IMG/VR virus record: IMGVR_UViG_3300037424_002358
Coordinates: 32,001 to 96,000 of that record
Origin: a virus
DNA length: 64,000 nt
Reading direction: 5' to 3' (one strand)
Shown here: positions 15,194 to 39,285 of the stretch, in pieces
How the letters are laid out: every line of letters starts with the position of its first letter
How positions within the stretch are numbered: the stretch's first letter is position 1
The notes under the pieces: generated by a model
What the model saw: the letters and a program-made list of their open reading frames with translations, nothing else
Database searches by the model: none
What the model was told of the DNA's origin: nothing
Translations under genes and position numbers: made by a program

Positions 15194-17239
15194 CTACTCC
15201 TGCTGGATTCCGACGCTCCGTCGAACCAGTGCCCTGAGCGGCGATACCGGCTTCTGGTTCGGCGCGCCGAGCGTGATAAGGCCTCCGCTGCCTTGCAGTC
15301 CCATCGTGCGCGGGACGAGTTGGACAGCCCGGCGCTGGAGGCCGACGGGTTCGAGCGGCTTGCGCGGCGAGACCCTGGGCGTTGCGTCCCTCGGCCCGGC
15401 GGAGCGCACCGCCATGGCGTTCAGGACCGCCCGGAGTTCCTGCTGCATCGCCGCCTGCGCGGCTGCGATGGGCGCGAACTGGGCCGCGACCTGATCGCTC
15501 ACCTGCCGCGAGATGATTGCGCCAATCTGCTGCGGATCGAGGATGGTCCCGTCCGCCGCCAGCGCGGGGGCTTCCTCTTCCTCCGCCATGGCGCGCATGA
15601 CCACGTCGGCCAGCGCGTCATAGTGCGGCTGGAGGGCACTCCCCCGGTCGGCTGGATTGAGGCTCGCCGCCATCACGGTGTCGTAGGCGGCCTTGAACGC
15701 GGTCAGGGGCGCATCCAACACGTGGGCGGTCGGCTCGGGCGTCGGGGCTACGACTTCGGACTCGGGCTCGGGCGCGGGCGCGGGCGCGACGGGAGTCGGC
15801 TCCGGGGCGGGTTCGGCCGCGGGGGCCGGTGCCGTTTCCACCGGAGGTTCGGTCCTCTCAACTACGTCGGTCACTTGGGCACCTCCCGGTTTGAGCAGCG
15901 GCGCGACCTCTGTGAGAGCGCGCACCGCCATGATGTCCACCGTCTTCTGGAACTCGGACAGGGTGGATCGAATCGACTCGCCGTGCTCATGTCCGGCGAT
16001 GTTCGTGAGGACGGCACCGAGGACGGCCCACGAGTCGGTGTCGAGAAGAACGCCCCTCGACCTCGAGAGGAACGCGTGGGCGTCGGCCAGCGTCTTGGCC
16101 CCGCCCAGGTATCCGCGCGTCTCCATCGTGCCCGTCACCACGGGCTTCTCCTCCCCCATCATCGGCTGCATCATCGCCTCGCCCTCGGCGGGCGCTGACG
16201 GGGGCGTGGCCGCGGCGTCCTCGGCCTTCATGACAATCGCACCTGGGTCGATGGCCCGCTCGGTCAACTTTCGCGCCCGGCGTTCCAACTCCTCGGCCAT
16301 CTCGTCACCCACGATGGAAGCGGCGTCGCCGCGCTTGCTGGTCATGGACCTCTCCTCCAACGCAATCTCGGTGTCGTTGTAGGCGGGCATCCTCGTAAGC
16401 GCTAGGTGCACAAGTTGGCCCGCACGATAATGCTTCTCGCCGACGCCACGCTCGCAAAGGTCGCAATGGTCGACGAGCGAACGGCGCTGGAAGGCACCGT
16501 GTGGGCCGTGATCGTGGCCCCAATCGACGAAGGCAATGGAAATACGCGTGCGCTGCTCGGGCGGGATGCCCGCCTCAATGTCGCGCTTGATCGTCCCGTA
16601 GGCCGCCTCGGCCAGAGGCGTGTCGCGGAAGTAGCCCCGGGCCTTGAAGGTCGACCCGTCGATATACTCCTTCTCCGTGTCGCCGACGATCCCGAAGCCG
16701 TCCATGTCCAGATAGTGGGCCACGCCGAGATAGGGGTGCCCGCCCTTCCAGGATGGCGAGGCAAACAGTTCGGGGGCAGGCTCGTTCTTCTTGATCCGCT
16801 GGATGAAGTCGCGGAAGAGGTCGATAGTCATCCACTCGCCGTACGCATCCCGCTTGACGCCGGACGAGGTGGCGTACCAGCGCTTGCGCCCGTCTTTGTC
16901 GGGCGCGACGCGCGTGATGTACAGGTCGAGGTGGGCAGGCTGAGACATGACCGCGAGCGTCTGGGCGGAGACGGAGGGCTGGCGGCCGTCGGACAGCGCC
17001 GGGGTGAACTCGTCGCAGTAGTCCTCGGGCATGGGCGATATGTCCACCAGCATGCAGATCGGTTCGGTCTGGCCTTCTGTCAGTCCGGCGCCGACGAAGT
17101 AGCGGCAGTCGCCGCATGACAAGCCGGGTATGCCCCCGCCGCGCCGGAAGCCAGCCTCGCCGGGGGTCAACTTCTTCGTGCCGGGTCCGAGCGAAGTCTG
17201 GCCCGTTACGCCATCGCGGAGGGTCAAGGCTTCAGTCAT
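15194..17239 (-). CDS. Prohead protease/scaffold with an N-terminal HiPIP-like 4-Cys domain
   Basis: RDAYGE, GVAHY, RISIAF and HLALTRMPAY match the layout of HK97-type proteases. Acidic, Pro-rich helical C-terminus. CGDC-x14-C-x11-C near the N-terminus. Confidence 0.7.
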   Translation of the reverse strand: MTEALTLRDGVTGQTSLGPGTKKLTPGEAGFRRGGGIPGLSCGDCRYFVGAGLTEGQTEPICMLVDISPMPEDYCDEFTPALSDGRQPSVSAQTLAVMSQPAHLDLYITRVAPDKDGRKRWYATSSGVKRDAYGEWMTIDLFRDFIQRIKKNEPAPELFASPSWKGGHPYLGVAHYLDMDGFGIVGDTEKEYIDGSTFKARGYFRDTPLAEAAYGTIKRDIEAGIPPEQRTRISIAFVDWGHDHGPHGAFQRRSLVDHCDLCERGVGEKHYRAGQLVHLALTRMPAYNDTEIALEERSMTSKRGDAASIVGDEMAEELERRARKLTERAIDPGAIVMKAEDAAATPPSAPAEGEAMMQPMMGEEKPVVTGTMETRGYLGGAKTLADAHAFLSRSRGVLLDTDSWAVLGAVLTNIAGHEHGESIRSTLSEFQKTVDIMAVRALTEVAPLLKPGGAQVTDVVERTEPPVETAPAPAAEPAPEPTPVAPAPAPEPESEVVAPTPEPTAHVLDAPLTAFKAAYDTVMAASLNPADRGSALQPHYDALADVVMRAMAEEEEAPALAADGTILDPQQIGAIISRQVSDQVAAQFAPIAAAQAAMQQELRAVLNAMAVRSAGPRDATPRVSPRKPLEPVGLQRRAVQLVPRTMGLQGSGGLITLGAPNQKPVSPLRALVRRSVGIQQE

Positions 17240-17768
17240 TCTTCCTGTACCACGATCCAGGCGTGGCCTGGAGTTTGGCGATATGCGAGGCAATACCTGC
17301 GGACGTGTAGGGAGATGGCCCGCCCCCTCCGCTGACCCCGCGCACGTGTTCCCGCCACTGAGCGGCGTTCACTTCACTTGTGGGACGGCTGACCAGTTCG
17401 TCCCTAACAGCCTCCACGAAATCGGAGTCGTAGTGCTTGGCGTTCATGGCAATGTGTAGCAGGGCTTCCGTCTCCGCCGTTGAGACGGCATGACCGCCCT
17501 GCTTGCTCGTTCCCCTCGACCAAATCCCCTGAATGTTATTGGCAATCTGAGCCGTCATGCTGAAGTTGCCAGGTCCGCCGACGGGTGTGCCCGCGGGTCC
17601 GCCGCCAGCGTTGCCAGCGCCACCGCCGCCCGGAGCGCTCCCCCCCACCTCGCCAGGGCGCCCCGCGTGGCCGAAATGTCCCGATCCGGGGCCTCCCCGG
17701 ACCACGCCTAGTTCGGGGAGGTCCCGGACCACAAGGTGCAACGGGTGGACGTGCTTGTGGATCGTCAC
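17232..17768 (-). CDS. Hypothetical protein with one GGPGSGHFGH tag
   Basis: VVR-GGPGSGHFGHAGRPGEVGGS at 17637-17699. Confidence 0.7.
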   Translation of the reverse strand: MTIHKHVHPLHLVVRDLPELGVVRGGPGSGHFGHAGRPGEVGGSAPGGGGAGNAGGGPAGTPVGGPGNFSMTAQIANNIQGIWSRGTSKQGGHAVSTAETEALLHIAMNAKHYDSDFVEAVRDELVSRPTSEVNAAQWREHVRGVSGGGGPSPYTSAGIASHIAKLQATPGSWYRKND

Positions 17769-17770
17769 GG

Positions 17771-19006
17771 TCAGATGCGCGGGTCGCCGAAGCGGCGCTC
17801 GCCTTCCGGGATTTGGACGGCGAGCGAGAGTGCCACGCCGCGGGTCATCTCGCGCAGGTTCCAGTCAATTGTGCCGGACCGGCGGACGAGGACGGCCCGC
17901 TGGAGTAGGTAGCCATCGGGCGAGTCGACCCAACGCTGGAAGATGTACTCCTCCGGCCGCGTGGGGTTCGTGATCGCCTGCCAGCCCTCGTCCATGCTCT
18001 TCTCGACCGCCTCCTCGTAGGAGCGCAGGACGGTGCGCTCCTGGACGAGATAGCCGATCGTGCGCTGCTGGAGCGGGCGGGCCATCCACGCGTTGGAGTT
18101 GACGTTGTCGGGCCGGCGGGCGATCCGGTTGGCGAAGCCGCCGTCGAGCATCTTCTGGTCGGCATCGGCCTCGACCTCACGCTGCCGGGCCGCCAGCGAC
18201 TTCTCTTCCTCGCCGCCCCACTCGGGCGACATGTCCTTCATCGCGCCGAGTTGGCGAGCCCGCTTGCGAAGGTGCGCCTTCACCTGGCCGCGCTTCGCCT
18301 CCGGGGCGCGCCCGTAGGACTGGACGCCGTCCATGAGGTCTTCGCGGTCGGCGATGGGGTAAGACCCATCGGGAAGCGCCCAGCCCCTCTTCGCGTACTC
18401 GGCCCGCTTCTCCGGCGAGTAATCCTTGCGGATCACCAGCGGGAGCGACAAGTCGAGGAAATCGTTGCGATGCAGGCGCCGAGCGGTCAAGGATTTCTCC
18501 TCCATCGGCTTCTCCCCCGGCGCTTCTTCCTGCGCCGGCTCCCCCTCTTCCTCCTCGCCCTCCTGACCTCCGGCGATGGCTGCGTCGGCCTGTTCGAGGG
18601 CGCAGCCCACCGGGTCATCCGTCTTCACACACTCACCCAGCAGGGCGGCGGCAAACGCGTCGCGCCACTCCTGCGAATACCTCGGGTCCTGATTGTCGGA
18701 CTCTTCCTCTTCCGGCTCAGCGGCCTCTTCCTCCGGCTCGGCCAGGTTGCTCACGTTCCCGTTCTTTTTCTCTTCGGCTTTCTTCCCCTTGTCGAGCCAC
18801 GGCGGAGGTCCGGCCCGCTTCACCCATTCGCCTTGCTCGTTCTTGCGGTAGTCGTTCTTCACCGCCGACCAGGCAATGGAGGCCGCGCACGCATCCCGGT
18901 CGTCGCGCTTGGCGCAGGTGCCGTCGTAGGCACCCAGGAAGGCCGACCGCCATATCTCGGCGGCGTGGCCTTTCAGCACCGAAGGAACGGTGACCGTCTC
19001 GGGCAT
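17771..19006 (-). CDS. ChaB-domain head-associated protein
   Basis: ChaB pattern HAAEIWRSAFLGAY...AWSAVKNDYRK..GEW, followed by an ALPDGSYPI...YGRA...HLRKRARQLG domain typical of phage head proteins. Confidence 0.7.
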   Translation of the reverse strand: MPETVTVPSVLKGHAAEIWRSAFLGAYDGTCAKRDDRDACAASIAWSAVKNDYRKNEQGEWVKRAGPPPWLDKGKKAEEKKNGNVSNLAEPEEEAAEPEEEESDNQDPRYSQEWRDAFAAALLGECVKTDDPVGCALEQADAAIAGGQEGEEEEGEPAQEEAPGEKPMEEKSLTARRLHRNDFLDLSLPLVIRKDYSPEKRAEYAKRGWALPDGSYPIADREDLMDGVQSYGRAPEAKRGQVKAHLRKRARQLGAMKDMSPEWGGEEEKSLAARQREVEADADQKMLDGGFANRIARRPDNVNSNAWMARPLQQRTIGYLVQERTVLRSYEEAVEKSMDEGWQAITNPTRPEEYIFQRWVDSPDGYLLQRAVLVRRSGTIDWNLREMTRGVALSLAVQIPEGERRFGDPRI

Positions 19007-19072
19007 GGGCCTATTCTCCCTACCGTGATTGTAGACAGAATGCAAGGGGATTGCCCGCACTTTCGCGCCGCC

Positions 19073-19132: not shown

Positions 19133-19420
19133 CTAGGCGGTCAGTAGCCCGGACTGCCGATGGAAGACGTGTCTGGCCTCGGCGCTGGCTAGGCGGAGCG
19201 TCCCGACGTACTCCCAAGTGTCGAGCGATCCTTCTCCTCCGGGCGCGTCCTCTCCGTCGGCAACGACAGCGAAGACGTGGCTGACCGTCGGCTTGCTGTC
19301 GTCCAGGAGCATCCAGACCGTGAAGAGCGCGGGCGTCCCGTAGAAGCCGACGCAGATGGGCCTCGCCCCCTGAGGCAACTCGAGGACCGGAACGATGGCG
19401 AATGGCTTGATCGTCGTCAT
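19133..19420 (-). CDS. Hypothetical phage protein (paralogue of 51264-51542)
   Basis: LELPQGARPICVG...VWMLLD...YVGT...HVF. Confidence 0.65.
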   Translation of the reverse strand: MTTIKPFAIVPVLELPQGARPICVGFYGTPALFTVWMLLDDSKPTVSHVFAVVADGEDAPGGEGSLDTWEYVGTLRLASAEARHVFHRQSGLLTA

Positions 19421-19860
19421 CGGTTCTCTGGTGTCGAAGGCACCCCGAGGGCGGCGAGCCGACGAAGGAGATTCCAGTGTGAGGAGCAGGAGCACGAATG
19501 GGTGCGCATCTCCTCGGCGGCTAATCCGGGAAGACTCAGGATTTCCCCGTCCTGCTTTTTCCAGGCGGCGCGCCCATTCACGGCGTCCTCAATGTCGGAG
19601 ACAGTCGGATGCTCGTCGCAGTCCGGGCAGTACATGAAATGGTCACCGTGCGGCGCCTTCGTGTTGACGAACGCGTCCGTGTTTAGTCGGAACCTGTGCT
19701 CGTGCGTCTTGGCCTCGGACGCGGCGATGGCGGCACGCATCTTTGCCAGCGCTTCGTTCCATCCGCGGACATAGCCATGCCCATGCTCGTTCAACTCAAT
19801 TCCATCGGTCAGTGGCTCAATATGTCCTAGCGCCACCACCTTGGTATAGGCATCATCCAT
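19417..19860 (-). CDS. Hypothetical protein with ASEAK segment
   Basis: Coupled ORF; CPDC and CSC motifs. Confidence 0.6.
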   Translation of the reverse strand: MDDAYTKVVALGHIEPLTDGIELNEHGHGYVRGWNEALAKMRAAIAASEAKTHEHRFRLNTDAFVNTKAPHGDHFMYCPDCDEHPTVSDIEDAVNGRAAWKKQDGEILSLPGLAAEEMRTHSCSCSSHWNLLRRLAALGVPSTPENR

Positions 19861-20122
19861 GCTTCACCTTCCCTGCGGCGGCGAGTGCGGCTAATTGCTC
19901 TTCAACGTCCATCACAACCAAATGTCGGTCGCCTTTGGTTAGTTGTCTCATGGCAACTTGATACGCCTCCACCTTGGCCTCGGACGCGGTCAGGGCGGGG
20001 ATAGGACAATCTTTGGCATGTGGTTTCTGCCCACACCACTTGCATTGTGCAACCAACGCTCCTCGTGTCGTTCGGTACTCGTTCCAACAGTTCTCCGGCA
20101 CCGTCTTGGCGTCAGTCCCCAT
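19853..20122 (-). CDS. Hypothetical Zn-finger protein with ASEAKVEA segment
   Basis: CKWC...H..DC; start MGTDAK. Confidence 0.6.
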   Translation of the reverse strand: MGTDAKTVPENCWNEYRTTRGALVAQCKWCGQKPHAKDCPIPALTASEAKVEAYQVAMRQLTKGDRHLVVMDVEEQLAALAAAGKVKHG

Positions 20123-20651
20123 CGGGAACCTCCGGGAGTTTCCTCCAGTGATTAGGGCCATTGACTCGATGCTCTCTATCAACATCCGTCTCCTGCGGCG
20201 CGGCGGCGAGGGCGGCGGGTGTCTTGTCGTGCTGCCTACCGTCATAGATGTTGCGATAGCGGCCTACGAAGTAGTTAGCGCATCGGAAGTAGACCTCAAT
20301 TATTCTCGCCCGGAAGCGTGTCCTCTTGCGCTCCACCCTCACTTCCTTCTCCAGCGCCTCCACCTTGGACCGGAGTGCCACGTTCTCGGCCTTGAACTCC
20401 AGGCCCTTGCGTCGATAGAAGTCCGCGAACCCACGATTGCGCCGTGCCTTTCCTTCCAGCGCCTCCACCTTGGCCTCGGACGTAGCGAGGGAGTTCAGGC
20501 GGGCCTCAATACCCGCTTGGTCGAGGTGCTGGTCGGTGCCTTCAAGTCTCGCCTCGGCCTCTGCATGCGCGCCCGAATAGATGCGACAAGTCACGTGCCA
20601 CTTCTGCACCGCCTTGGCGTCAGTCCCCTGCGGGACGCTAGGCGCTGTCAT
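20112..20651 (-). CDS. Hypothetical coiled-coil protein with SEAKVEA segment
   Basis: Coupled ORF. Confidence 0.6.
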   Translation of the reverse strand: MTAPSVPQGTDAKAVQKWHVTCRIYSGAHAEAEARLEGTDQHLDQAGIEARLNSLATSEAKVEALEGKARRNRGFADFYRRKGLEFKAENVALRSKVEALEKEVRVERKRTRFRARIIEVYFRCANYFVGRYRNIYDGRQHDKTPAALAAAPQETDVDREHRVNGPNHWRKLPEVPDGD

Positions 20652-21181
20652 CGGGAATTCTCCTTGGCGTCGGCCATCAGTCGCTCAACAGGGTTCATCC
20701 CCTCTCGACTTTCCATCTTGGGTGCGGCGGCGAGGGTGGCCCCATCGAGAATGTGTACAACATGCTCGACTAGCCACGGCCTCCCCGGAGCATCGGGGTC
20801 GTCCTCCGAAAGAATGGCCGCAATCGCCGCCTCCACCTTGGCCTCGGACGCGGCCAGGGCGGCTACGAGGCGCAGGCGCTTGGCTATCTCGTGGGGAATG
20901 CAGCCGCCGTGACCGCGCGGGCAAATCAAGTTGACTGGCCCACCCGTCAATGACTTTCGCATGTAGACGGTGTTGCAAGTCTCGCACAGCCACTCTTCTT
21001 CGTTGTCGCGTCGCTCCAGCGCCGCCAGCCTGGCCTCGGAGGCGGCGAGGGCGTCAATGGCACGTAGTCCTAGAGGTTCAAACTCAAGTGCTAGATCAGC
21101 GTGGCTCATGGATGGTCTAGGCGTCCCCGCCCATCGCTTGCATTCTTCCAGAACCGTCTTGCTGTCAGGCTTGTCAGTCAT
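20648..21181 (-). CDS. Hypothetical Zn-ribbon protein with ASEAKVEA segment
   Basis: CETC...CPRGH. Confidence 0.6.
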   Translation of the reverse strand: MTDKPDSKTVLEECKRWAGTPRPSMSHADLALEFEPLGLRAIDALAASEARLAALERRDNEEEWLCETCNTVYMRKSLTGGPVNLICPRGHGGCIPHEIAKRLRLVAALAASEAKVEAAIAAILSEDDPDAPGRPWLVEHVVHILDGATLAAAPKMESREGMNPVERLMADAKENSR

Positions 21182-21851
21182 CGTGAGGTTCCTTGCCGAC
21201 GCCTATGCCCGGCGGCTCCACCCTCACTTGAGACCAGTTCGCATTCACGTCTTGCCCCTCCCCGGACGGCTCCGAGGCGGCGTCGTTGTCCTGCCTTTGG
21301 TAGATAGCGTCAACGGCATCGAGAATTTCGACGTTGCCATCGTCGGGAGCCAGAACGATGACGGCCCCCGTTCTCCCATCCTTCTCCTTGAAACGAAGCG
21401 CCATGTGGCCTATGCCCAGGTTGTCATCCGACTTGATGATGCGGTACAACTTTCCCGCCAGTAGAGCCGCCGCCTCAAGACCGCTCCCCTCCAGCGGCTC
21501 CACGTTGGCCTGAGTGGCGGGGTCGACCGAAACCCACATCTGATCGCCGGGTTCAACTTCGATGTGTTCACGCTCTGCCTCGGTGAAGTCTTCGGGGTTG
21601 TAGGTCACCCACTTGATGAGGCCGTGTTTCTCGGCCAGTTCCTCAAAGTCGCCTCCGTCTAGGTTCATCGAACCGTCGAAGCCGAACACCTGCACCATGT
21701 CACGCCAGAAGCCTTCCAGCACCTCCAGCCTAGCCTTCCAGGCGTCGGCGTGGGCGCGCACCAAATTGCCGGTAACGATGCGCCGATGTCGCCAGCCGCG
21801 CAGTATGTCAGCCGCCAGCGCCGTCAGGGTCTCGTGGGTGTATTCAGTCAT
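21174..21851 (-). CDS. Hypothetical protein
   Basis: GGAGG RBS upstream of MTEYTHE. Confidence 0.6.
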   Translation of the reverse strand: MTEYTHETLTALAADILRGWRHRRIVTGNLVRAHADAWKARLEVLEGFWRDMVQVFGFDGSMNLDGGDFEELAEKHGLIKWVTYNPEDFTEAEREHIEVEPGDQMWVSVDPATQANVEPLEGSGLEAAALLAGKLYRIIKSDDNLGIGHMALRFKEKDGRTGAVIVLAPDDGNVEILDAVDAIYQRQDNDAASEPSGEGQDVNANWSQVRVEPPGIGVGKEPHDD

Positions 21852-22056
21852 CGCGAACCTCCTTGGCGAGGGTGGCACCAGCAAGGGTTCTTAGTACCAC
21901 CAGTCTACGCCGCCTGACCCGCTCACATCGGGATGTGCGCGAAAGAAGGCCGCCCAATAATGTCCCTCCCGTACCTCCTCGTGGTATCTCCATGCCAGCC
22001 ATAGGAACAGAAGGGCAAAGCACGCCATCAAGGTGACCATCTAAGCGCCCTCCGGC

Positions 22057-22557
22057 CTAGCGCAGCCCGAACAGGCTGACGCCGATCAGGATGAATAACA
22101 CCGCGGCGACGGCGATTGCGCCGCCCCCCAGCAGCCCGATGACGAACGAGGGCCAGTCCCAGCGGAGCCGCCAGGCGGGTTGGAGGCCCGCGAGGTAGGG
22201 CTGTTCGAGCAGGCGGCCCTTGCGCTTCTTGACACGCTCATCGACGCCGAGTTGCAGGATTTCGACGCTCGACCCATGCTTGCCCGGCTGGCGCCCGACG
22301 ACGCGAACTAGGCCATCCCAGATCAGAGAGTTGACGGCGCTCGAAACGGTCGTGATCTTCACGCCCGTCCCGAACGGATTCTCGCTGAATAGTTCGTAGA
22401 GCGCTTCCCGGGTCGTCGGCTGGAGGTAGGCGATCGCAAGCCGCACGCGCTCCTTGACCTTCAGATCGCGCCCGGACTCGTGCAGTCGCCGCCACGCCTC
22501 CGCGGAGGTTTCCTTATAGGCGGGCGGCGGAGCGCCGAAGAGAAATTGCTGTCTCAC
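22057..22557 (-). CDS. Hypothetical protein with a winged-HTH-like domain and C-terminal TM helix
   Basis: TTREAL...ITTVSSAVNSLIWDGLVRVVG; hydrophobic C-terminus. Confidence 0.55.
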   Translation of the reverse strand: MRQQFLFGAPPPAYKETSAEAWRRLHESGRDLKVKERVRLAIAYLQPTTREALYELFSENPFGTGVKITTVSSAVNSLIWDGLVRVVGRQPGKHGSSVEILQLGVDERVKKRKGRLLEQPYLAGLQPAWRLRWDWPSFVIGLLGGGAIAVAAVLFILIGVSLFGLR

Positions 22558-23078
22558 TTTGCCTCCTTGAGCGTCCACACCCGCATCCACAACGTGTCGC
22601 CCATCAACTGCTGGAGTTCTCGGATCGGAAGGAGCGCATCGTAGCGCACCTGCCAGCACGGGACGGGCGCATTGGGGTTCCAGTAGGGCGAGTCAGGAAC
22701 GACAACCAAGTCCTTCCTGATCCAGCCCCGGATGGCATACCGTGGCATCTCTCCCGAGACCCCAACGTAGGCATCGCACTTCCTGCCAGGGGGACGAATG
22801 GAAAAGCGGTCGCTGTTGCCCAACTTCACGTCAATCAGCCAACCGTGCCCGTTCAAGTCCTGCCCGATGGAACGCAAGAGCATGAAGGACAGGTCCGGCC
22901 ATAGGTTCAGGTACTTGGCGACGGCGAACTCGGCACCGACGCTGTTTATCGCGTTGACCAGCGGATCGCGCCTCGTGACGATCCGGTCCTTGACGTGCGC
23001 CTCGCGATCCTTCTTATCGCGCTGCCGCGCGATATGGGTGGCGATGGAGCGCTCTTCCGGCGTGAGGGGGACAATCAC
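22554..23078 (-). CDS. Hypothetical phage protein, PD-(D/E)XK-like
   Basis: GAEFAVAKYL...QD...IDVK...DAYV...IRGW. Confidence 0.55.
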   Translation of the reverse strand: MIVPLTPEERSIATHIARQRDKKDREAHVKDRIVTRRDPLVNAINSVGAEFAVAKYLNLWPDLSFMLLRSIGQDLNGHGWLIDVKLGNSDRFSIRPPGRKCDAYVGVSGEMPRYAIRGWIRKDLVVVPDSPYWNPNAPVPCWQVRYDALLPIRELQQLMGDTLWMRVWTLKEAK

Positions 23079-23130
23079 GCGGAGGTTCCCCTGTAGGCGG
23101 GGGGAGGAGCACCGAAGAGGAACTGTTGGG

Positions 23131-30489: not shown

Positions 30490-30518
30490 AGTATATACCG
30501 CCTGCGGTACCATGTCAA
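30490..30518 (-). promoter_or_regulatory. Sigma70-type promoter with a 14-bp palindromic operator
   Basis: TTGACA-17 nt-TATACT; TACCGCCTGCGGTA at 30496-30509. Confidence 0.85.
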
Positions 30519-31342
30519 GGGGTCACGACGGTCATTTTCGCCCGGAAATCTCTGCGGGTCGTGAGCAGGCCAGCCTGGGCTAGTTCTTCCGCCAGCCCCG
30601 CCAGAGCGGCCCGGTGCTGGCCCTCGCCGAAGCCCCACTCGGCGACGGCGGCGACCCGGAGGAAGACGCCGGTATCGGAGCGGCCCCACGTCCAGCCGCT
30701 CACGCCGAGGTCCTGCGCGGCAGCCTCAATGGCGGAGCGCAGGTCGGGCGTCAGCGGCGTCCAGAACTCCAATTCGCTCACGGGTTCGCCCTCGCCCTCG
30801 CCAGCCGCCTCCATGATAAGGACGCTCTCCTGCCCGAACATCTCGGCGGTATCCCGCAGAAGTTCCAGCGCTTCGCCGTCCCCGCGATAGCCGACGACCC
30901 AGGTCGGCTCGTGGGTGACCTCGCCTGTGTCCTGGCGCGTGTAGCCGCCGACGCCCGGAGCCACGGTCACATACGAGACCGTGGAAATCTCCCGTAGCCG
31001 TTCCCCGAAGACTCGCATCTCCTGAAAGACCTGCTTGGCGGGGATGCCTGGCTTAGCGGACGTGATCCCGACGGCCTTCGGCCCCGGCCCGCCTCCGGGC
31101 TGACTGCCCCCCACCTCGCCCGGACGCCCCTCGTGTCCGAAGTGCCCTGATCCAGGGCCACCACGTTCTACGCCGAGAGGCTCCGGGACGATCTCGAACG
31201 GGCCGTCGTCCATCGTGATGAGATGCCCGCCCACCTCGACCGTTTCGCCCTCAGTCAGGCGGACGAACTGCGCGCCGGTCACCTGCGTCCGGCTACCGCT
31301 GTAGCGCTCAGCACCTTCGTAGCGGTCCATGATGAAGCCCAT
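30515..31342 (-). CDS. GGPGSGHFGH-tagged protein with a SAM-lyase/DUF3293-like domain
   Basis: Tag at 31103-31165, then VGITSA...GVGGY...HEPTWVV...AEMFGQESVLI. Translationally coupled (TGATG) to the giant gene. Confidence 0.6.
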   Translation of the reverse strand: MGFIMDRYEGAERYSGSRTQVTGAQFVRLTEGETVEVGGHLITMDDGPFEIVPEPLGVERGGPGSGHFGHEGRPGEVGGSQPGGGPGPKAVGITSAKPGIPAKQVFQEMRVFGERLREISTVSYVTVAPGVGGYTRQDTGEVTHEPTWVVGYRGDGEALELLRDTAEMFGQESVLIMEAAGEGEGEPVSELEFWTPLTPDLRSAIEAAAQDLGVSGWTWGRSDTGVFLRVAAVAEWGFGEGQHRAALAGLAEELAQAGLLTTRRDFRAKMTVVTP

Positions 31343-34300
31343 CAGTTCACCTTCTCGCGGCCGTAGAAGCGCACGACCTCCGGGTGGTCAATGGAAAAGC
31401 GCGTCATGACCTCGTGACCATGATTGGTCTCGGCCCACGACCTGAGACTGCTGTCCGCCGTGACTTGCGGTTGCCACTCGTCGTATACGCTCCGGTCCGC
31501 CGAGCCGTAGGCATCCGCGATCTTTCCGGTGTCCCATCCCGCGCGTCCGGCTGCATTCTCTGCCGGCTGGAAACGGTAGAGCCAGCGATTGCCAGCGTAG
31601 TCCGTCCCGACAGCCCTGATCTCGGCCAGATGATTCTTGCAGGCGAATATGATGTCCTCAGGCGAGAATGCTCTGCCCGATGGATGGGAATGCGTCAGCG
31701 TACTGCCCCTCATGGTCGCCTGCTCTTCGTCAGTCCAAAATATCCCGGCGCCCTTGGGGTCATCCCAGCCCGTGCCGATCTTCTCAATGAGGACTTCGCC
31801 AGAGGCATCCACGGCGTAGGCTTTCTCCGCATCGTCGTGACCACGCGAGTATAGATCACTTTCGGCGGAGCGGATCGCTTCCTGCGCGGCCGATGATGGA
31901 TCAAACTGGACTCCGACGTATTCCCGCTCCTGGTAGGTCTTGAGACCCTCGCCGATCAGCGAGCCGCCGGAACCGACGACTTCCCGCATGCCTCCGCCCC
32001 CTGGCACGCTTCCGCCCACCTGGCCGGGCCGCCCCTCATGTCCGAAATGGCCGGAGCCTGGCCCGCCGCGGATGATCCATTCCTCCGGGTAGTCGGATGG
32101 GTCGTCGACCGATATGATCTCCTCGACGGGGCCGTTGTACGGAACGCGCACGTAGTGAGTTCGGCGGGCAGCCTTGAACTCCACCTCGCCCTGCCGGCGC
32201 TCCACCCTGGCCCGGATCGTCTCCAACATCGCCGACCTGTCCCTGCGGTTGTTCTCGTTCATCTCGGCCATCGGCAAGATGCCCGTCCCGAGGAGGTCGG
32301 ACGCATGGCTGAACCGGAGGAAGTCGTCCCTGCCGTTGAGGTAGGACGAGATCAGGTCGGCCCGGTACTCGTCGTCCCGGCTCGACTCCTTGTACGGTGA
32401 TATGGCGGCCAGCGACACGAGGTAGCGATACTCCCCCTTGGCGAGGCTGTCCGTGAACACGTCGTCGAGTTGCAGGGCGTAGTCGACTAGGTGCCCGACC
32501 TCGTGGCCGAGCGTGTCGTTGTACACGTCGGAGCCGATCGTGCGGGATGCCTCCAGCCATTCGTCGAAGCCGGGAAACTTCCCCGGCACGTGACCTCTGA
32601 CCTTGTCGCCGAAGTCGGGGTTCAACCACAGCATGGCACGGTTGTCGGCCCTGTTGTAGGCTGCCAGCCCCCACACATTCCCCCACACCTCCGCCACCGC
32701 GGCCCTGACCTCGTCGTATTTCTCCGGCGGCGTCGGTTTGAAGTCAATCAACTCTTCCCGCAGGAAGTCGTTGAGGGCGACGGGGTCGTCCGTCAGGCGA
32801 AGCCCGCGTAGCCGCAGGTTCAATTTTCTTTCGGCCCTCTCGACCATTCCCTGGACCGCAGCCGCCGTCTCGGGGTTGCCGAACACGTAGCGGTTGCCGC
32901 CGATCCTGCGCTCCTCCGGTGGGCCTCCGCCTCCGGGTGCGCTCCCGCCAACCTCACCAGGGCGCCCCGCGTGACCAAAGTGACCGGAGCCGGGGCCACC
33001 GCGCATGGTGATGCCGACAGCCTTCTCGAAGGCGCGCAGGCTGTCCCCCCCGATCAACTGGCCCGATGGCGTCATGAACTCGAACTCCGGCGAGATGTCG
33101 CCGGAGAGGACCATGTCGCGGATCGCCCGCCGCTGCGCCGCCGTCTGCGGGGGCCGGCCCTTGAAGGCCAGGATGACATTCACCGGCCCCTCCCGGGCGT
33201 CCTCGTCCACCGCGATGAAGCCCGAGTCGTACATCACCTGGATCACCGTATCCAGGAACACGTCCGGGAGATTGCGCGCCTCGCCCTCGGCATCCTCAAA
33301 CGCCTCCTCCAGTCCCTCTATCGGCTCCTCATCGAGGCCCGCCTTGCGGATGGCATCGGCGAAGGCCGCGTCGTGGTTGCCGAAGCCAGTCTCGAAGACT
33401 CTGCCGTCGGGCGACACGAGCCATCCGTTCATGCTCCGGTGGCCGGGCACGAACGGACTCTCATGCGGCGAGAAGGCGTCGGCGACTGCTCGGCGGAAGT
33501 TATATAGATAGCCCTCGTTCCATTCCTGCGTGATGCCAGCGCCCGCGCCCGGCGCACTTCCGCCGACCTCACCAGGGCGGCCCTCATGTCCGAAGTGGCC
33601 CGAGCCCGGGCCACCTCGCTCTAGGATCTCCAGCGGGATGAAAATACGGCGCGGCCGGAGGCGGCAGACGGCCCGGACGGACAGGCTCTCCTCCTCGAGT
33701 TGCTCACCCGGCCAGAGGATGTCCATGAAGTCGTCCTCGTACTTGTCCCACCATTCGTCGGCCCTGCTCGTTACCAACTCGTTGTAAGAGGTTTCCAGGT
33801 CCCCCCCCGTCCTGTGGCTCAATACCCACGTCGCGAACCACGTGACAAAGTCGTCGCCATAGACGAATGCCGTGGGTCGGACAACTGAGGAAGTTGTGTA
33901 ATCCCCCTCCTCTGGACCCTTGCCTCCGATCTCCTTCCCCTCGGTCCCAAATTCAATATCCCCATTAGGCCCAATCTCCGCGGCGTAGGCCATCCCGCCT
34001 TCCGATCCGGTCCATGCTATCTCGGCATCGCGCACCGCGTCCGGGTCAATGACCGCCACCAGCGCATCCTCGCGCAACTGTTCGAGCGGCGGCCAGATTG
34101 CGCTCCCCTGAGTCCAGTTCCAGTCGCCGCCCCGTGCAATGACACTCTGCGCCATGGCCGCGGTGATTGCGGCCATGGCGGGATCGTCGCTTACCCCGTC
34201 ATGAGCCTCGGGCGAACCCGGTCTCATCTCATCGTCATAGGAGGGATAAGCGTTCGGTCCAGCCAGGTAGGTTAGGGAGTCAGGTTCGCCCATCTGACCC

Positions 34301-37300
34301 GCGGTGCCTTTTCTACCCGTGTAGACGTTCGATACCCAATTGCCCACCTGCGGTAGTAGGCCATGCTCAACGATGCTCTCGAGGTGATCCCGGAGCGTGC
34401 CGTGGAAGAACAGCCTGGGGCCTACCTGATTGGGCTTCAGCGACGCGGGCACTTTGACCGTCCCGCCCGCGCTCGGTGCGCTTCCTCCGACCTCACCGGG
34501 CCGACCCTCGTGCCCGAAGTGACCTGAGCCAGGGCCACCACGGAGGGCGAGACCTGCCCACCACGGTAGCGGCTTCGGCGTCCAGCGGCGCCCGACCAGC
34601 GCACTCGTGAACTCTCTATCGGGCCATCCTGTCACGACGCCGGAGTCGGCGATTGCTCCGAAGGGTCTACCCTCCGGGTTCACGCGCTCCCAAACGACGC
34701 CCTTGTCCGCGTCGGGAACATCCGCCTCCATCGTGTATCGAGCAATCGACGCCAGAACCGAACGCTGGTCGTCCGTCGGTGTGAGGTTCCGATCCCACAT
34801 GATGCCGACGTAGTTTTCCCGACCTGCGCTCCCTCGACTGACACGGATGAACCCGTGGGCAGTGAAGAGTCCCTCGCCTGTCGCGCTCGGCACGCCATGC
34901 GCGATGAGCGTTGCCGACGACCGCTCCATTGCATCCTGCTTCGCCGCCTCAAGGGTCGCAGATGCTACGACGCCGTGGGGCAAGCCATATTCCTCCTGCA
35001 GTCTGTCTATCCAGCCGGATGGGCGGTATGTGTAGGGCCAATCGCTTCCTGGCTCGTTCGTGATGCGCCCGAGGCGGAGCGACCCGTTTGCGGACTCATA
35101 CTCGACAAAGACAGCGGGGTTGTCAGGCGGATAGTCTGGATCGGGCGGGAATGAGTATTGAGCCTTGGTTTCCTCTGGAAGAACGGTCGAGTAGTAGGCC
35201 ACGAGCGCATTCATCGCGGCCTGCTCGTGGCCCTTGCCCTCGACATTGAAGATGGTGCCATCGGGCGCAAGCCAGAACTCCCCGGAGTTGGCTTCCTCGC
35301 GAGTGAGTTTCATGGCTTCCTCCGCGAGGACCTGCTGGAGGCCTTCTATGTCAGCCCGCGAGAACTTGTGTCCCTTGAAGGCGGTGTCATTGAGGCGCGG
35401 GCTGAGATGACTCGCGTACTTCGTCCCCTGCTCCGCAACCCCGCCGCCGCTTGGCGCGCTCCCGCCTACCTCCCCTGGCCGACCCTCATGCCCGAAGTGA
35501 CCACTACCGGGACCGCCGCGCTCCTCAAGGGTCCGCCGGAAGTAATAGCGTCTGCTCTCCTTGAAGCCTGCCGCCTCGTCCCGCGGATCGTTGCCTCTCA
35601 TGCCTACTGCGATGAAGCCGCCCGGTCCGTCAATGAGATAGTCGCTTCCAGTCATCGCGGTCAATGGCGTATAGGAACCCGACGTTATCACGACGCGCTC
35701 TTTCGCTTCGCCGAGAACGCGCCGGGCAATAGCCACTGCCTGCGACTTGCTGTATTCGTTGTAGCGCGATGTGGACCATTGGAGGATGCGTCCGAGTGCT
35801 GCCCCACTCAGGCGAAGCGGATTGGCCTGGCTACCAGGGCCACCTGCGTAGTGCGGGCCATATTCGGCAAGCCTTCCCCCATCGGAAGCAGCATCGCCCG
35901 GTGCGCTCCCGCCAACCTCGCCTAGCCGACCCTCATGCCCGAAGTGGCCGGAGCCTGGCCCGCCGCGGGAAACGATAGATCGCGTGCGCAAGAGCGAGTC
36001 AACGCCCGATCCGTGAGGCCCATGTTCCAGGTCGACCGTTGCGCCTCCCGCCATCGGATGCAGAACGATGTCCCACGCCTCCCATGGGAGAATCTCAATG
36101 AGCCGCGGAATCTTCCCGGCCATCTCTGAGATGCGGCTTGCTTGCTCGTCGGTTATCTTCGCGCCGCCAGTCGACACTCCCTGTGTGCCCGACGTGCTCC
36201 ATCGCACGAGGCCGAGTCCGAGCATGATGCCCTCGTGTGAGAAGTGCGCACCAGGGATGAAACCGCTCGGCTCGACGCCAAAGAATTTCTTGAACCTGTC
36301 CGATAGGACGCCAGGATGCTCAAGAGCCGATTGGGCTGAACGGTCGTGACTCTCTACCTCGACAACCGTTCCATCCCTGAGCAGCCAGTAGTCGCCAAAG
36401 CCTATGTGCGAGGGGGAGACTGTTGGAGGATATACATCTCGGATATGCCCCGCCTCGCGTTCCCTAAAAAGCGCCTCGACCTTGTCCCGGATGGCAGGAA
36501 ACTCGCTGGCGATCTGGCTTTCCTTGAGCGATGGCGCAATACCAGCCATGCTCTCACCGTAGCGGGGCTGTGCCTCTGCCGTCGTCGCCCCGCTACCCGG
36601 CGCACTTCCGCCAACCTCACCAGGGCGACCCTCGTGCCCGAAGTGGCCCGATCCGGGGCCACCGCGCTCAATGACGCTCCTCAGGAGACGTGCGCCCTCA
36701 GGTCCTATCTGGTGTTCGTCGACCACGGACTCGACGCCCGGATTGACGGCCAGGATATCCTTGATAGTGTTCACGACTCGCCGACCCACTTCGGGCGAAG
36801 CCTCAATCCCGAGACCGTTGGGCCACATAGACGTGAGGCGGGCAAAGCCATGCGCGAACATCCAGTCGGACGCCTCGCCGAAACCCATGTCGCCGAGGCC
36901 CGCGTCGGCTATCGAGACGCTTGCCGACTCGTGGTGCAGGGCCGACAGGCTGATGTCGGTCAAGTTGCCGTCGGGCCTGATCCAGAATCGCGCCGCCGTG
37001 CCCTTGAGCCTGACTGCCGTCGGATCAGCGGTGCCGTAGCGGCCAGCCATGGCGTCCGCGACCTTGGCAGCAACTCCGCTCGGCTGCGACCCCCCGATCT
37101 CCCCTAGTCGCCCCTCATGACCGAAGTGCCCGGAGCCGGGACCGCCGCGCTGGGCGTAGCCCGCCGACCCGCCGTGACGCTCCGTGAAGTGCGATGAAAG
37201 AGTTGATAGAATCTGGTCGCCACTCGGCCACCAATCGTTCGGCGAGAGCGTCAGAGTTGCCATGACCTCGTCGGCTGTCGTATTCTCCAGGTCATCGGTG

Positions 37301-39285
37301 AACTCGAAAACTGTATCCCGGCCATCGGACTGTACAGCGGCGTCCATCAGAGTGATGACTGAGTTGCGAAGTGCTGGCGAGATTGGCCGCGGAAGGTCTA
37401 TGCCATAGCCTCGACGGCTTACCCGCATGCCATCGTCTATGGCATGCCAGCCAGTAGGCCATCTGCCGACGCGGGCCAAGCCAGCCGAGACGAGGCGCAT
37501 TTTGTCGTCGACACTTTCCTCCTGCTCGGCTATTGTGCGAGGCCAATGTCCATGAAGGGCAAAGAAGCCCACATCCTCGTGGTTGGCGTTCTGGGCTAGG
37601 TACGTTCCATCCGACCCGATATACGAGGCATCGAGCGGGTCCGATTTGCCGAACTCGTCCTCTATTCTCCCCGTCAAGACTCTTCCTTCCGGTAGCGTCA
37701 TCCCCGGTGCGCTTCCACCCACCTGCCCCGGCCGCCCCTCATGACCGAAGTGCCCGGAGCCGGGACCGCCGCGCAGTTCTAGGCCAGCGACGCGGGCAAG
37801 TTGTTCTGTGTCACCGCCATGAGGCCAACTGGACAAGCCGCGGTTGAAATTGGCCTCGTACTTCACTTCCGTGTCGCGGTTGGCGAGAAGATAATCCGTC
37901 AGCGTACTCCTGGCGGCGCGCGTAAGCGGAGTCCAGAAATCGAGGGCGATCCGACGGTTGTAGACATTGGTCACGCGTACGAAGCCGAGTGCGCGCATGG
38001 CCTGGAGCCAACGCTGTGGATCGCTCTGATCGCCGGATGGCAGATCGGCCTTCTTCAGAGCCTCAGCAGCCGCGTCGGCATGGGTATCTTCTAGGCCGCT
38101 CTCACGTGGACGGATGGAAATCGCGCGTCCGTCTGGAGCAATGTAGCCGTCGAACATGGAACCGGGTTTGACCGTAAACTCGCCATGTCCACGGGCACTC
38201 ACCATTGCATCAGCGACTCGGACGGCCTTTGAGCCGTAGCGTCTCTCTGGCTCGCGCGTGGATGCTCCCCCTCCGGGCGCGCTACCCCCGACCTCACCAG
38301 GGCGCCCCGCGTGGCCGAAGTGGCCCGAACCGGGGCCGCCGCGCATCACCGTCAGCGCCTCGCCGAGCAGGAGAGGACGCCTAGACCCATTCAGGAAGAC
38401 GACCTCGCCGCGTAGCGCCGCCGCGATCTCCGAACGTCCCACGGCGACCCTGTGCCCGTTGCGCTGTCCAGGCCACACGTGCGGCCCGCCCCGCTCGACC
38501 AAGGCCCGGTCACCGGCCATCATCGGCAGGTGCACCGTCCTGACGCTGTCGTACTCGTCGCGGGACACAACCACGCCGCGGGCTGGCAGGTGGAACGGCA
38601 GGACGCCGGGTGCCAGAGCGGTTAGGCCATCCAGGTTGCTGTCAGGTGCCATGTCCGTAAGGAGCGACACATGCGGGATGTATCGGGCCGGGTTGGAAAA
38701 GTCGTTCGCGTCGGGCGTGCAGCCGTTCTCCAACGCGAGCCGGTAGAGGTCGGACTGGAGTCGGACGAGCGCCGGGTCCGGGGCTACGGACAGCGCCAGC
38801 GCGCCGCCCATCTGAATCGGCTCGACCAACTCGACCCTGAACATCAGCGGCAGGCCGAGGTTGTTCCAGATGCGTTCGAGCGCCGTATCCTCGGCCCCGT
38901 CGAGGTAGACGAGACTGCAATGGAAATGGGCCGGGTTGAGCCGGTCGCAGGATATGCCGCGCCGCCTCAACTCGGCCTCATACAGCGCACTCAAGTTCGC
39001 GAGCGTGGGATCGTTCGGGAAAGCGAGGTAGACGAACGCGGCGTGGCCGACCGCCCGCCGCATGATCGGCAGCGCCACCGTCGAGGGGATGAAGGCTACT
39101 CGCCCGAGAGGATCGTCACGCCGAATTTGGTCTGCCACCCCAGCCTGCCTAGATGGAGGCCGAACGAGAGAAGCCATCCGGTTAGAACCTCGCTCACGAC
39201 CGGCACGTAGATCGGTGCCAGAAGGTTCACGCCCATCAGCCAGGCCAGCAGCGGCAAGAGCCAGCAGCCGAGACAGAAGTCGCAC
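31342..39285 (-). CDS. Giant polyvalent protein (2647 aa) of 11 modules separated by 10 conserved tags; includes 2H phosphoesterase, ART-like, zincin and JAB domains
   Basis: Uninterrupted ORF with HCSL/HVSL, FFHGT..GL, HEVGH and HSHPS..FS..D motifs. The true start is probably 100-220 nt downstream of 39285. Confidence 0.85.
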   Translation of the reverse strand: MRLLSRLLALAAAGLADGREPSGTDLRAGRERGSNRMASLVRPPSRQAGVADQIRRDDPLGRVAFIPSTVALPIMRRAVGHAAFVYLAFPNDPTLANLSALYEAELRRRGISCDRLNPAHFHCSLVYLDGAEDTALERIWNNLGLPLMFRVELVEPIQMGGALALSVAPDPALVRLQSDLYRLALENGCTPDANDFSNPARYIPHVSLLTDMAPDSNLDGLTALAPGVLPFHLPARGVVVSRDEYDSVRTVHLPMMAGDRALVERGGPHVWPGQRNGHRVAVGRSEIAAALRGEVVFLNGSRRPLLLGEALTVMRGGPGSGHFGHAGRPGEVGGSAPGGGASTREPERRYGSKAVRVADAMVSARGHGEFTVKPGSMFDGYIAPDGRAISIRPRESGLEDTHADAAAEALKKADLPSGDQSDPQRWLQAMRALGFVRVTNVYNRRIALDFWTPLTRAARSTLTDYLLANRDTEVKYEANFNRGLSSWPHGGDTEQLARVAGLELRGGPGSGHFGHEGRPGQVGGSAPGMTLPEGRVLTGRIEDEFGKSDPLDASYIGSDGTYLAQNANHEDVGFFALHGHWPRTIAEQEESVDDKMRLVSAGLARVGRWPTGWHAIDDGMRVSRRGYGIDLPRPISPALRNSVITLMDAAVQSDGRDTVFEFTDDLENTTADEVMATLTLSPNDWWPSGDQILSTLSSHFTERHGGSAGYAQRGGPGSGHFGHEGRLGEIGGSQPSGVAAKVADAMAGRYGTADPTAVRLKGTAARFWIRPDGNLTDISLSALHHESASVSIADAGLGDMGFGEASDWMFAHGFARLTSMWPNGLGIEASPEVGRRVVNTIKDILAVNPGVESVVDEHQIGPEGARLLRSVIERGGPGSGHFGHEGRPGEVGGSAPGSGATTAEAQPRYGESMAGIAPSLKESQIASEFPAIRDKVEALFREREAGHIRDVYPPTVSPSHIGFGDYWLLRDGTVVEVESHDRSAQSALEHPGVLSDRFKKFFGVEPSGFIPGAHFSHEGIMLGLGLVRWSTSGTQGVSTGGAKITDEQASRISEMAGKIPRLIEILPWEAWDIVLHPMAGGATVDLEHGPHGSGVDSLLRTRSIVSRGGPGSGHFGHEGRLGEVGGSAPGDAASDGGRLAEYGPHYAGGPGSQANPLRLSGAALGRILQWSTSRYNEYSKSQAVAIARRVLGEAKERVVITSGSYTPLTAMTGSDYLIDGPGGFIAVGMRGNDPRDEAAGFKESRRYYFRRTLEERGGPGSGHFGHEGRPGEVGGSAPSGGGVAEQGTKYASHLSPRLNDTAFKGHKFSRADIEGLQQVLAEEAMKLTREEANSGEFWLAPDGTIFNVEGKGHEQAAMNALVAYYSTVLPEETKAQYSFPPDPDYPPDNPAVFVEYESANGSLRLGRITNEPGSDWPYTYRPSGWIDRLQEEYGLPHGVVASATLEAAKQDAMERSSATLIAHGVPSATGEGLFTAHGFIRVSRGSAGRENYVGIMWDRNLTPTDDQRSVLASIARYTMEADVPDADKGVVWERVNPEGRPFGAIADSGVVTGWPDREFTSALVGRRWTPKPLPWWAGLALRGGPGSGHFGHEGRPGEVGGSAPSAGGTVKVPASLKPNQVGPRLFFHGTLRDHLESIVEHGLLPQVGNWVSNVYTGRKGTAGQMGEPDSLTYLAGPNAYPSYDDEMRPGSPEAHDGVSDDPAMAAITAAMAQSVIARGGDWNWTQGSAIWPPLEQLREDALVAVIDPDAVRDAEIAWTGSEGGMAYAAEIGPNGDIEFGTEGKEIGGKGPEEGDYTTSSVVRPTAFVYGDDFVTWFATWVLSHRTGGDLETSYNELVTSRADEWWDKYEDDFMDILWPGEQLEEESLSVRAVCRLRPRRIFIPLEILERGGPGSGHFGHEGRPGEVGGSAPGAGAGITQEWNEGYLYNFRRAVADAFSPHESPFVPGHRSMNGWLVSPDGRVFETGFGNHDAAFADAIRKAGLDEEPIEGLEEAFEDAEGEARNLPDVFLDTVIQVMYDSGFIAVDEDAREGPVNVILAFKGRPPQTAAQRRAIRDMVLSGDISPEFEFMTPSGQLIGGDSLRAFEKAVGITMRGGPGSGHFGHAGRPGEVGGSAPGGGGPPEERRIGGNRYVFGNPETAAAVQGMVERAERKLNLRLRGLRLTDDPVALNDFLREELIDFKPTPPEKYDEVRAAVAEVWGNVWGLAAYNRADNRAMLWLNPDFGDKVRGHVPGKFPGFDEWLEASRTIGSDVYNDTLGHEVGHLVDYALQLDDVFTDSLAKGEYRYLVSLAAISPYKESSRDDEYRADLISSYLNGRDDFLRFSHASDLLGTGILPMAEMNENNRRDRSAMLETIRARVERRQGEVEFKAARRTHYVRVPYNGPVEEIISVDDPSDYPEEWIIRGGPGSGHFGHEGRPGQVGGSVPGGGGMREVVGSGGSLIGEGLKTYQEREYVGVQFDPSSAAQEAIRSAESDLYSRGHDDAEKAYAVDASGEVLIEKIGTGWDDPKGAGIFWTDEEQATMRGSTLTHSHPSGRAFSPEDIIFACKNHLAEIRAVGTDYAGNRWLYRFQPAENAAGRAGWDTGKIADAYGSADRSVYDEWQPQVTADSSLRSWAETNHGHEVMTRFSIDHPEVVRFYGREKVN
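32008..38343 (-). repeat. Ten dispersed 63-nt coding repeats (RGGPGSGHFGHxGRxGxxGGS)
   Basis: Copies at 32008-32070, 32941-33003, 33556-33618, 34480-34542, 35458-35520, 35905-35967, 36604-36666, 37087-37149, 37711-37773 and 38281-38343. Confidence 0.97.

Follow-up and report, generated by a model that had tools for sequence, protein, structure and literature searches.

The stretch analysed here, which we call the window, is a 64,000-nucleotide part (positions 32,001 to 96,000) of the IMG/VR virus record IMGVR_UViG_3300037424_002358, a complete 111,962-bp genome of an uncultured phage with terminal repeats and a G+C content of 65%. Three co-directional genes of its head module, all on the minus strand, carry 12 copies of a 21-residue peptide tag, R-GGPGSGHFGH[AE]GR[PL]G[EQ][VI]GGS. 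Ten of the copies lie in a giant open reading frame (ORF) at 31342..39285, which has a maximal length of 2647 aa and is split by the tags into 11 modules. One further copy is found in a second gene at 30515..31342 (tag at 31103-31165) and one in a third gene at 17232..17768 (tag at 17637-17699). From the N-terminus onwards, the copies of the giant ORF occupy 38281..38343, 37711..37773, 37087..37149, 36604..36666, 35905..35967, 35458..35520, 34480..34542, 33556..33618, 32941..33003, and 32008..32070. Translation recovered all 12 where an earlier sequence-only reading of this DNA had placed them, and successive starts within the giant ORF are 149-326 aa apart, as that reading had reported. A degenerate DNA pattern of the tag core hits exactly these 12 sites, with 0.00 hits expected from 100 shuffles, and a profile search of the whole genome found no tag beyond them.

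The 12 copies are 94% identical as protein and 78% identical as DNA. Third codon positions account for 782 of the 904 base differences between them, codon differences are far more often synonymous (756) than non-synonymous (78), and one Ser alternates between TCN and AGY codons. These biases, together with the two identities, indicate that the peptide and not the DNA is what is conserved, a point already made in the sequence-only reading. The same two identities argue that the copies are not recent DNA duplicates. In an AlphaFold model the tag is disordered, with a predicted local distance difference test score (pLDDT) of 35-38, and would therefore be accessible; a confident domain begins about 10 residues downstream. 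The homologies of the individual modules also end at tags, so that the proposed position of the tags at domain boundaries is borne out. Four functions that parts of the motif might suggest were discarded: a Walker-A kinase loop (GGPGSG is present, K[ST] is missing), Ni-assisted S-x-H hydrolysis (the His concerned is Asn in 53% of tags), AT-hook DNA binding via GRP (the flanks are acidic in this phage), and 2A-like ribosome skipping, which is without basis in prokaryotes.

The tag is widespread among uncultured viruses. When 1.84 billion representative proteins were searched with a profile built from the 12 copies, it matched 3,599 protein clusters at E<=1e-3, 712 at E<=1e-10, and 91 at E<=1e-30. 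The matched proteins carry 1-9 tags each, and many have 3-9 copies in a length of 600-3,000 aa. The consensus of 613 instances reads [KRL]-GG-P-GSG-[NH]-[FH]-G-H-x-GRPG-x-[VR]-GGS, within which GG.GSG..GH.GR.G..GGS is essentially invariant. The sources are almost all metagenomes, and the names returned with the proteins are annotations from metagenome-assembled genomes (MAGs) only. A scan of GTDB species genomes with lineage-specific patterns gave nine tag loci, all on MAG contigs, some of which were binned with methanogens (two of the nine) and with Oscillospiraceae.

Pfam, PHROGs, and NCBIfam hold no model of the tag, a full-text search of 8.4 million papers for tag substrings returned none, and literature searches on polyvalent proteins, prohead proteases, DUF2213, and ejection-protein polyproteins turned up no mention of the motif. 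In the paper that describes polyvalent proteins (PMC5512222), the words linker, glycine, spacer, disordered, and interdomain are absent, and "motif" refers to catalytic motifs. A tblastn search with the bare tag against 50,697 cultured-phage records gave no match, although its low-complexity filter probably masks the query. The protease gene and the region spanning the 2H module and the first cassette (both described below) also had no match in cultured phages, and no tag is present in Caudoviricetes sp. vir524, Brevundimonas phage MaInes, or Faecalibacterium phage FP_Brigit. What appears to be new is a conserved 21-residue junction that is common to at least four head-module lineages, can be repeated up to 10 times in one protein, and stands in front of single-cassette genes as well.

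Among 262 gene-called proteins, a median of 30 residues precedes the first tag, and the last tag is trailed by at least 85 aa in 95% of them and by fewer than 40 residues in four. These lengths imply a layout of leader, tag, and domain, which can be repeated and in which the tag almost never ends the protein. The second tagged gene, whose ATG overlaps the stop of the giant ORF, encodes 275 aa with a 59-aa leader, the tag, and a 195-aa domain, and this C-terminal module reappears as the last cassette of a 3-tag protein elsewhere (P0073). The third gene, which overlaps the start of the protease gene, encodes 178 aa with a 23-aa leader, the tag, and a domain of about 130 aa.

The giant ORF probably starts at Met75 (39063) and not at its annotated start, because its earlier part is overlapped by a conserved 105-aa ORF (39096-39413) and alignments with homologues begin only at about residue 50-100. 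Its first module (module 0, 38344..39063) is untagged and 2H phosphoesterase-like; it matches Pfam 2_5_RNA_ligase2 at an E of 4e-5, which is below the cut-off, while its homologues reach 9e-15 and also match LigT and Acb1. The 2H module is N-terminal in all 13 of 13 sources. The last module (module 10, 31345..32007) is RadC/JAB-like, with a pattern E...HxHP...S..D that is invariant in nine homologues and a profile match to the RadC structure 2qlc (E 0.013); elsewhere it forms a stand-alone tagged gene with 70% identity (P0186). The preceding module 9 (32071..32940) is a possible zincin peptidase by virtue of an HExxH motif that was seen by eye, and has no significant family match. Modules 1, 3, 4, 5, 6, and 8 (within 33004-38280) are distant paralogues of one family, W-x2-PDG ... 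H ... GF[IV]R, which makes up 82 of 1,238 tagged modules and comes from 53 sources. A module of this family folds confidently, yet Foldseek gave no match at E<=0.001 (best VIA Z 3.3 against the PDB), a comparison by language-model features (Atlas) yielded nothing usable, and no Pfam or PHROG model matches the family. Single-sequence comparison of modules 7, 9, and 10 with the PDB gave no significant match, and an assignment of module 7 as Tpt1/KptA-like was dropped for weak resemblance (E 0.4). The giant polypeptide joins several unrelated effector-type domains, namely 2H-like, RadC/JAB-like, HExxH (by motif only), and the six paralogous modules. The count of about 11 effectors in the sequence-only reading was overstated: the 2H and RadC/JAB-like modules are the ones backed by sequence, whereas six of the 10 cassettes are paralogues without a fold match and the zincin is called from its motif.

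One and the same module can form a tagged gene of its own or be a cassette inside a longer protein. A relative that is 95% identical (P0008) contains one extra tag-plus-module cassette, at its residues ~448-651, placed exactly between the equivalents of modules 8 and 9 (window 32071-33618), which are 94-98% identical. Alignment of the two indicates that whole cassettes are gained or lost at tags between close relatives. It could be argued from these exact boundaries, and from the shuffling of modules among genes and genomes, that the tag is an uncleaved structural linker or evolutionary joint, acting as a hinge for domain-by-domain threading through the tail or as a common in-frame recombination junction. 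The disorder of the tag and its richness in Gly agree with such a role, as does the occurrence of plain linkers in its place in related fusions. A hinge, however, needs neither 20 invariant residues nor the lineage-fixed residue before GG that is described below, and it leaves the bias toward a short N-terminal leader unexplained. Moreover, third codon positions are nearly saturated at 78% DNA identity, so the DNA offers little homology for recombination. We consider a linker or joint quite unlikely.

The genomic context of the tag was examined in 69 IMG/VR loci, which represent 44 non-redundant locus groups. The 189 tagged ORFs are co-directional within each locus and form arrays of adjacent genes. 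Their commonest untagged neighbour is a terminase of the type found in the window; 24 of the 44 groups have it upstream on the same strand, with 0-5.3 kb between it and the first tagged ORF. In four other large near-complete genomes, all 8-16 tags per genome fall within one 9-17 kb block. Close relatives conserve the order terminase, portal/MuF, 175-aa ORF, 105-aa ORF, tagged genes, ChaB, protease-scaffold, and capsid. In other lineages the tag is fused directly behind a portal (PF06381, PF04860), MuF, DUF2213, or Peptidase_S78 domain and is followed by a further domain. The tag homologues are tied in this way to terminase, portal, MuF, and protease genes, and the association with head-morphogenesis loci on which the sequence-only reading depended was found, as were variable domains downstream of the tag, including ADP-ribosyltransferase (ART), 2H, Zeta toxin, GNAT, and NUDIX.

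Pfam matches were obtained for about 30 of 150 representative modules and comprise ADP-ribosyltransferases (PF03496, ART-PolyVal, PF01129), 2H domains including Acb1-like ones, topoisomerase IB, GNAT, Zeta toxin, and ChaB, in addition to the portal, MuF, and protease domains that serve as anchors; about 80% of modules have no Pfam match. Precomputed domains of 120 tagged proteins add NUDIX, ParBc, Fic, SprT, PI3/4-kinase, HD, and nucleotidyltransferases, and RadC/JAB-type domains are also among the effector-type domains joined by tags in relatives. Judged by these matches, the repertoire is that of polyvalent proteins (PMC5512222). The tagged genes of the window carry no MuF domain, MuF-like similarity being confined to the portal gene (39938-42547), and in some relatives (P0116, P0308, P0318) MuF and cargo share one polypeptide. 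Because tagged proteins are fused to portal, MuF, and protease in relatives, we place them inside the head. Sequence and gene context together support the view that the tagged genes form a modular cargo system linked to the head module.

One alternative is that the tag is an uncleaved docking or ejection signal. It would then bind a conserved head component (portal, scaffold core, capsid interior, or packaging motor) or prime passage through the tail, and the giant protein would remain intact, as do N4 virion RNA polymerase (vRNAP) and gp47 of phi24B, a 2811-aa polyvalent virion protein (PMC5512222; bioRxiv 10.64898/2026.04.10.717836). Uncut polyvalent proteins thus exist in virions, and twenty near-invariant residues fit a binding epitope better than a cut site. 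Stand-alone proteins without another anchor have the tag near the N-terminus, and the terminase is the one protein family that could be detected in all tag lineages. On the other hand, an address is superfluous for cargo that is fused to portal, MuF, or protease and already in the head, ten copies of it in one protein are redundant, and effectors tethered to a portal would be unable to leave uncut. The portals, proteases, and capsid proteins of the tag lineages differ in family, and no equally conserved partner is evident. On balance, docking without cleavage seems to us unlikely.

The residue before GG bears on cleavage as well. The sequence-only reading held that this residue is an invariant Arg, which is correct for this genome and its lineage but not elsewhere, the 613 instances having K in 38%, R in 26%, and L in 19%. 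Within a source the residue is uniform (up to 31 of 31 copies), and K is pure in 63 sources, R in 37, and L in 38, with D, N, and A being rarer; positions -2 and -3 vary. The residue also follows the type of head module. R occurs with the portal, gp21-like protease, and capsid found in the window (7 groups), K with a PF04860 portal and Peptidase_S78, D with PF06381-a, MuF, and DUF2213-b (8 groups), and L or A with PF06381-b, DUF2213-a, and a DUF6260-type capsid. Such fixation by lineage would be expected of a P1 residue that is matched to its protease. In seven loci of the R lineage, a second, looser motif stands before many tags, either x-L-R-R-[IV]-[IV]-x immediately ahead of RGG or an acidic P-E-x-V-E, and the functional unit may therefore be about eight residues longer than the 21-mer.

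A candidate for such a protease is encoded beside the third tagged gene. The gene at 15194..17239 (minus strand) specifies a protein of 699 aa with no family match by sequence, for which an AlphaFold model was built from 46 sequences. The model predicts a protease-scaffold fusion that consists of an N-terminal 4-Cys knuckle resembling a high-potential iron-sulfur protein, a gp21/assemblin-fold protease (~residues 105-284), and long C-terminal helices of the kind typical of scaffolds. The best Foldseek matches are T4 gp21 and herpesvirus proteases; residues 105-284 superpose on T4 gp21 (5jbl_A) with a VIA Z of 11.1 and a root-mean-square deviation of 2.8 A over 137 aligned residues, and the domain superposes on herpesvirus assemblins with a Z of 5-6.5. 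The modelled fold agrees with the earlier naming of this gene as a prohead protease. The N-terminal ~65 residues (16991-17188, minus strand) contain four invariant or near-invariant Cys, and in the model they can be superposed on high-potential iron-sulfur proteins with a Z of 7.1 (3h31) and 6.7 (1isu). If the model is correct, it would be unusual for a prohead protease to have a knuckle that binds a metal or cluster. Complex prediction with protease residues 95-330 and the tag peptide gave a score of 0.02 in a single run without controls, a result to which we give no weight in either direction.

The remaining genes of the module lie on the same strand in the order terminase, portal/MuF, two small conserved ORFs, giant ORF, 275-aa tagged gene, a block of ~11 kb, ChaB gene, 178-aa tagged gene, 699-aa protein, 395-aa protein, and phrog_1645 gene. 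The large terminase subunit (42645..44252) matches phrog_38 (E 9e-80) and Pfam Terminase_6C, and its closest counterpart in the cultured and reference set is that of a Methanomicrobiales virus, with 37% identity. Just upstream of it, at 44469-45620 (minus strand), lies a BCS1-like AAA+ ATPase (BCS1_N + AAA). The portal gene (39938..42547), which has a C-terminal MuF-like head-morphogenesis domain, matches phrog_2662 (portal, E 4e-12) and phrog_2468 (head morphogenesis, E 1e-11), has no Pfam match, and is kept in seven locus groups. Between it and the cargo genes are a 175-aa ORF (39395..39922) with no family match and homologues at the equivalent position in six locus groups, and the 105-aa ORF (39096..39413), which is hydrophobic, contains Cys, and has homologues in seven locus groups. 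The ChaB-domain protein (17771..19060; Pfam ChaB, E 4e-9) is encoded shortly ahead of the protease, a position that is conserved, and is itself tagged in two of nine relatives. The 395-aa protein (13911..15098) is a probable SU10-type major capsid protein by a language-model feature score of 0.98 to SU10_MCP clusters, a feature-similarity lead only, and it is syntenic 3' of the protease in five locus groups. The earlier call of protease and capsid genes at this place accordingly holds, the former by its gp21 fold and the latter by the feature lead. A virion structural protein (12519..13829; phrog_1645, E 2e-90) follows, and in one relative (L025, 13190-17011) two capsid-family copies flank the phrog_1645 gene.

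The sequence-only reading had all three tagged genes lying between portal/MuF and protease/capsid. The gene order agrees, but ~11 kb of unrelated genes (19133-30073, minus strand) separate the second from the third. This block inside the head module is without homologues in related loci and encodes, on the minus strand and among other products, a B12-binding radical SAM enzyme (27375-28763), a second radical SAM protein (24979-25710), a glycosyltransferase-like ORF (23843-24631), an HNH endonuclease (23131-23802), and DUF7352 (19133-19495).

We propose that the tag is a cut site of the prohead protease and possibly also a loading signal, a reading to which we give somewhat less than an even chance. 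The three genes would encode capsid-internal cargo, that is, one giant polyvalent protein and two single-cassette proteins. As a disordered junction ahead of the cargo domains, the tag would be recognised within the prohead by the gp21-type maturation protease of the phage, which would cut at or beside the lineage-specific residue preceding GG (Arg in this phage). Cutting would yield about 11 separate proteins of 15-35 kDa and strip the two small proteins of their short leaders. By binding to the protease or scaffold core, the tag may also bring stand-alone tagged proteins into the prohead, as the capsid-targeting sequence (CTS) of T4 does. The freed modules (2H, RadC/JAB-like, HExxH, and six W-x2-PDG copies) would then exit alongside the DNA and have an early role in the host. 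That the cargo is packaged, cut, and ejected, which protease cuts it, and what the modules do are matters that we infer.

Cleavage is the simplest reading of an anchor-tag-effector arrangement, because an effector that is attached to a portal has to be released by a cut before it can act in the next host. The layout of leader, tag, and domain also resembles, by analogy, the N-terminal propeptides that gp21-type proteases remove in T4 and SPN3US. In SPN3US, gp245 trims propeptides of 20-254 aa off head proteins (PMC10052503), and in T4 the CTS directs proteins, including foreign ones, to the core (PMC9958956).

It is also possible that the cut is made by another agent, such as a peptidase borne by the cargo itself (the HExxH or JAB-like module), a host protease after injection, or metal-assisted self-cleavage via the two His of the tag. 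Metallopeptidase domains have been proposed to autoprocess polyvalent proteins (Iyer et al., PMC5512222), and the giant protein does have HExxH and JAB-like modules; a universal chemistry or a universal host enzyme would be consistent with a tag that does not vary among lineages and hosts. Against this, many tagged arrays are without a recognisable peptidase domain, about 80% of modules lack a Pfam match, and JAB domains of the RadC type are thought not to be peptidases (PMC5512222). The residue at -1 follows the head-module lineage, and a disordered 21-mer is without the fold that known self-cleaving sites need. A cutter other than the prohead protease seems quite unlikely.

Several observations nevertheless weigh against cleavage of the tag by the prohead protease. 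A protease site needs about 4-8 residues, and twenty that are near-invariant across protease families exceed what cleavage requires. The match between the residue at -1 and protease family could reflect shared ancestry instead of co-adaptation, and some polyvalent virion proteins, for example N4 vRNAP, are packaged uncut (PMC5512222). The first module of the polyprotein, which is always 2H in this lineage, is untagged, and a model with one address per cargo leaves that unexplained. The cultured relative FP_Brigit (MG711465.1, 12001-14487) encodes an 828-aa portal with a C-terminal NUDIX domain and another domain that are joined by plain low-complexity linkers without the tag; the tag is thus not required for such fusions. 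A metagenomic portal (L014, 8438-10870) is 97% identical to that of FP_Brigit over 507 residues and then continues with the tag and an ART-like domain. Finally, no cultured phage with the tag was found, and it is from uncultured genomes that we infer cleavage and packaging of tagged proteins. The excess invariance, the possible shared ancestry, and the uncut polyvalent proteins are the reasons for which we stop short of calling the prohead-protease reading probable.

A broader form of the proposal would make the tag a portable address-and-release signal that works across lineages. A protein that follows it, whatever its kind, would enter the prohead and be released there by the maturation protease, phages of four or more head-module lineages would swap injected effectors as cassettes, and the residue at -1 would set which protease opens the junction. 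This wider claim is rather doubtful at present. Among the lineages that it takes in are some related to Faecalibacterium phages and some on contigs that were binned together with methanogen genomes.

The giant protein is best filed among the polyvalent proteins that Iyer, Burroughs, Anand, de Souza, and Aravind described in 2017 in phages and conjugative elements (PMC5512222), a class to which the sequence-only reading had alluded only loosely when it mentioned co-delivery of polyvalent or MuF-linked proteins. This assignment is made by architecture and context, as the protein does not match the Pfam models of the class (LPD families, ART-PolyVal); ART-PolyVal (PF18760) is found in many tag-bearing relatives. 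Like other members, it is a very large multi-domain protein beside portal/MuF genes, with terminase and portal/MuF directly upstream, and the domain types of the window and its relatives (2H, RadC/JAB, zincin-type HExxH, ART-PolyVal, GNAT, Zeta/kinase, ParB, NUDIX) are those of the class; both are predicted to be packaged and injected early. Unlike in other members, one 21-residue motif marks each domain junction and also heads the single-domain genes of the block.

The closest functional precedents are the internal proteins and Alt of T4, whose CTS is cut by gp21, and the ejection proteins of phiKZ and SPN3US, which are cut by gp175 and gp245. These systems also have a prohead protease of the gp21 fold beside the cargo genes, short N-terminal leaders on the cargo, and host-directed enzymes among it, T4 Alt being an ADP-ribosyltransferase. 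The T4 cleavage site is short, L/I-x-E. That of SPN3US gp245 is likewise a short, logo-defined motif (PMC10052503). Whereas those sites each belong to one phage group, the 21 residues described here are common to lineages with different portal, protease, and capsid families, and they also split polyproteins internally, up to 10 times. The T4 CTS has no sequence similarity to the tag, for which cleavage is our proposal.

The MuF polymorphic toxins and portal-effector fusions are comparable in that relatives of this phage have MuF-tag-ART, portal-tag-ART, and portal-tag-NUDIX arrangements. They differ in that the MuF domain of the window is fused to the portal and not to cargo, the cargo is without a recognised anchor, and the tag is undescribed for those families. 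The cargo-loading peptides of encapsulins offer a functional analogy only: they, too, are short, Gly-rich, disordered peptides that mark unrelated enzymes as cargo of an HK97-fold shell. Such a peptide usually occurs once and at a terminus, attaches directly to the inside of the shell, and has no sequence similarity to the tag.

Because the residue at -1 is paired with protease lineage, the specificity of these proteases is open to direct testing. Should the tag prove to be a cut-and-load signal, injected proteins could be listed from sequence alone for thousands of uncultured phages, and the tagged modules, about 80% of which belong to no known family, would provide a list of candidates for early effectors and anti-defence proteins. 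For loading chosen proteins into capsids, a short conserved tag with activity across lineages would also be of practical use. A cut-and-load role would, moreover, explain how the capsid handles giant polyvalent proteins, a question left by the 2017 description of the class.

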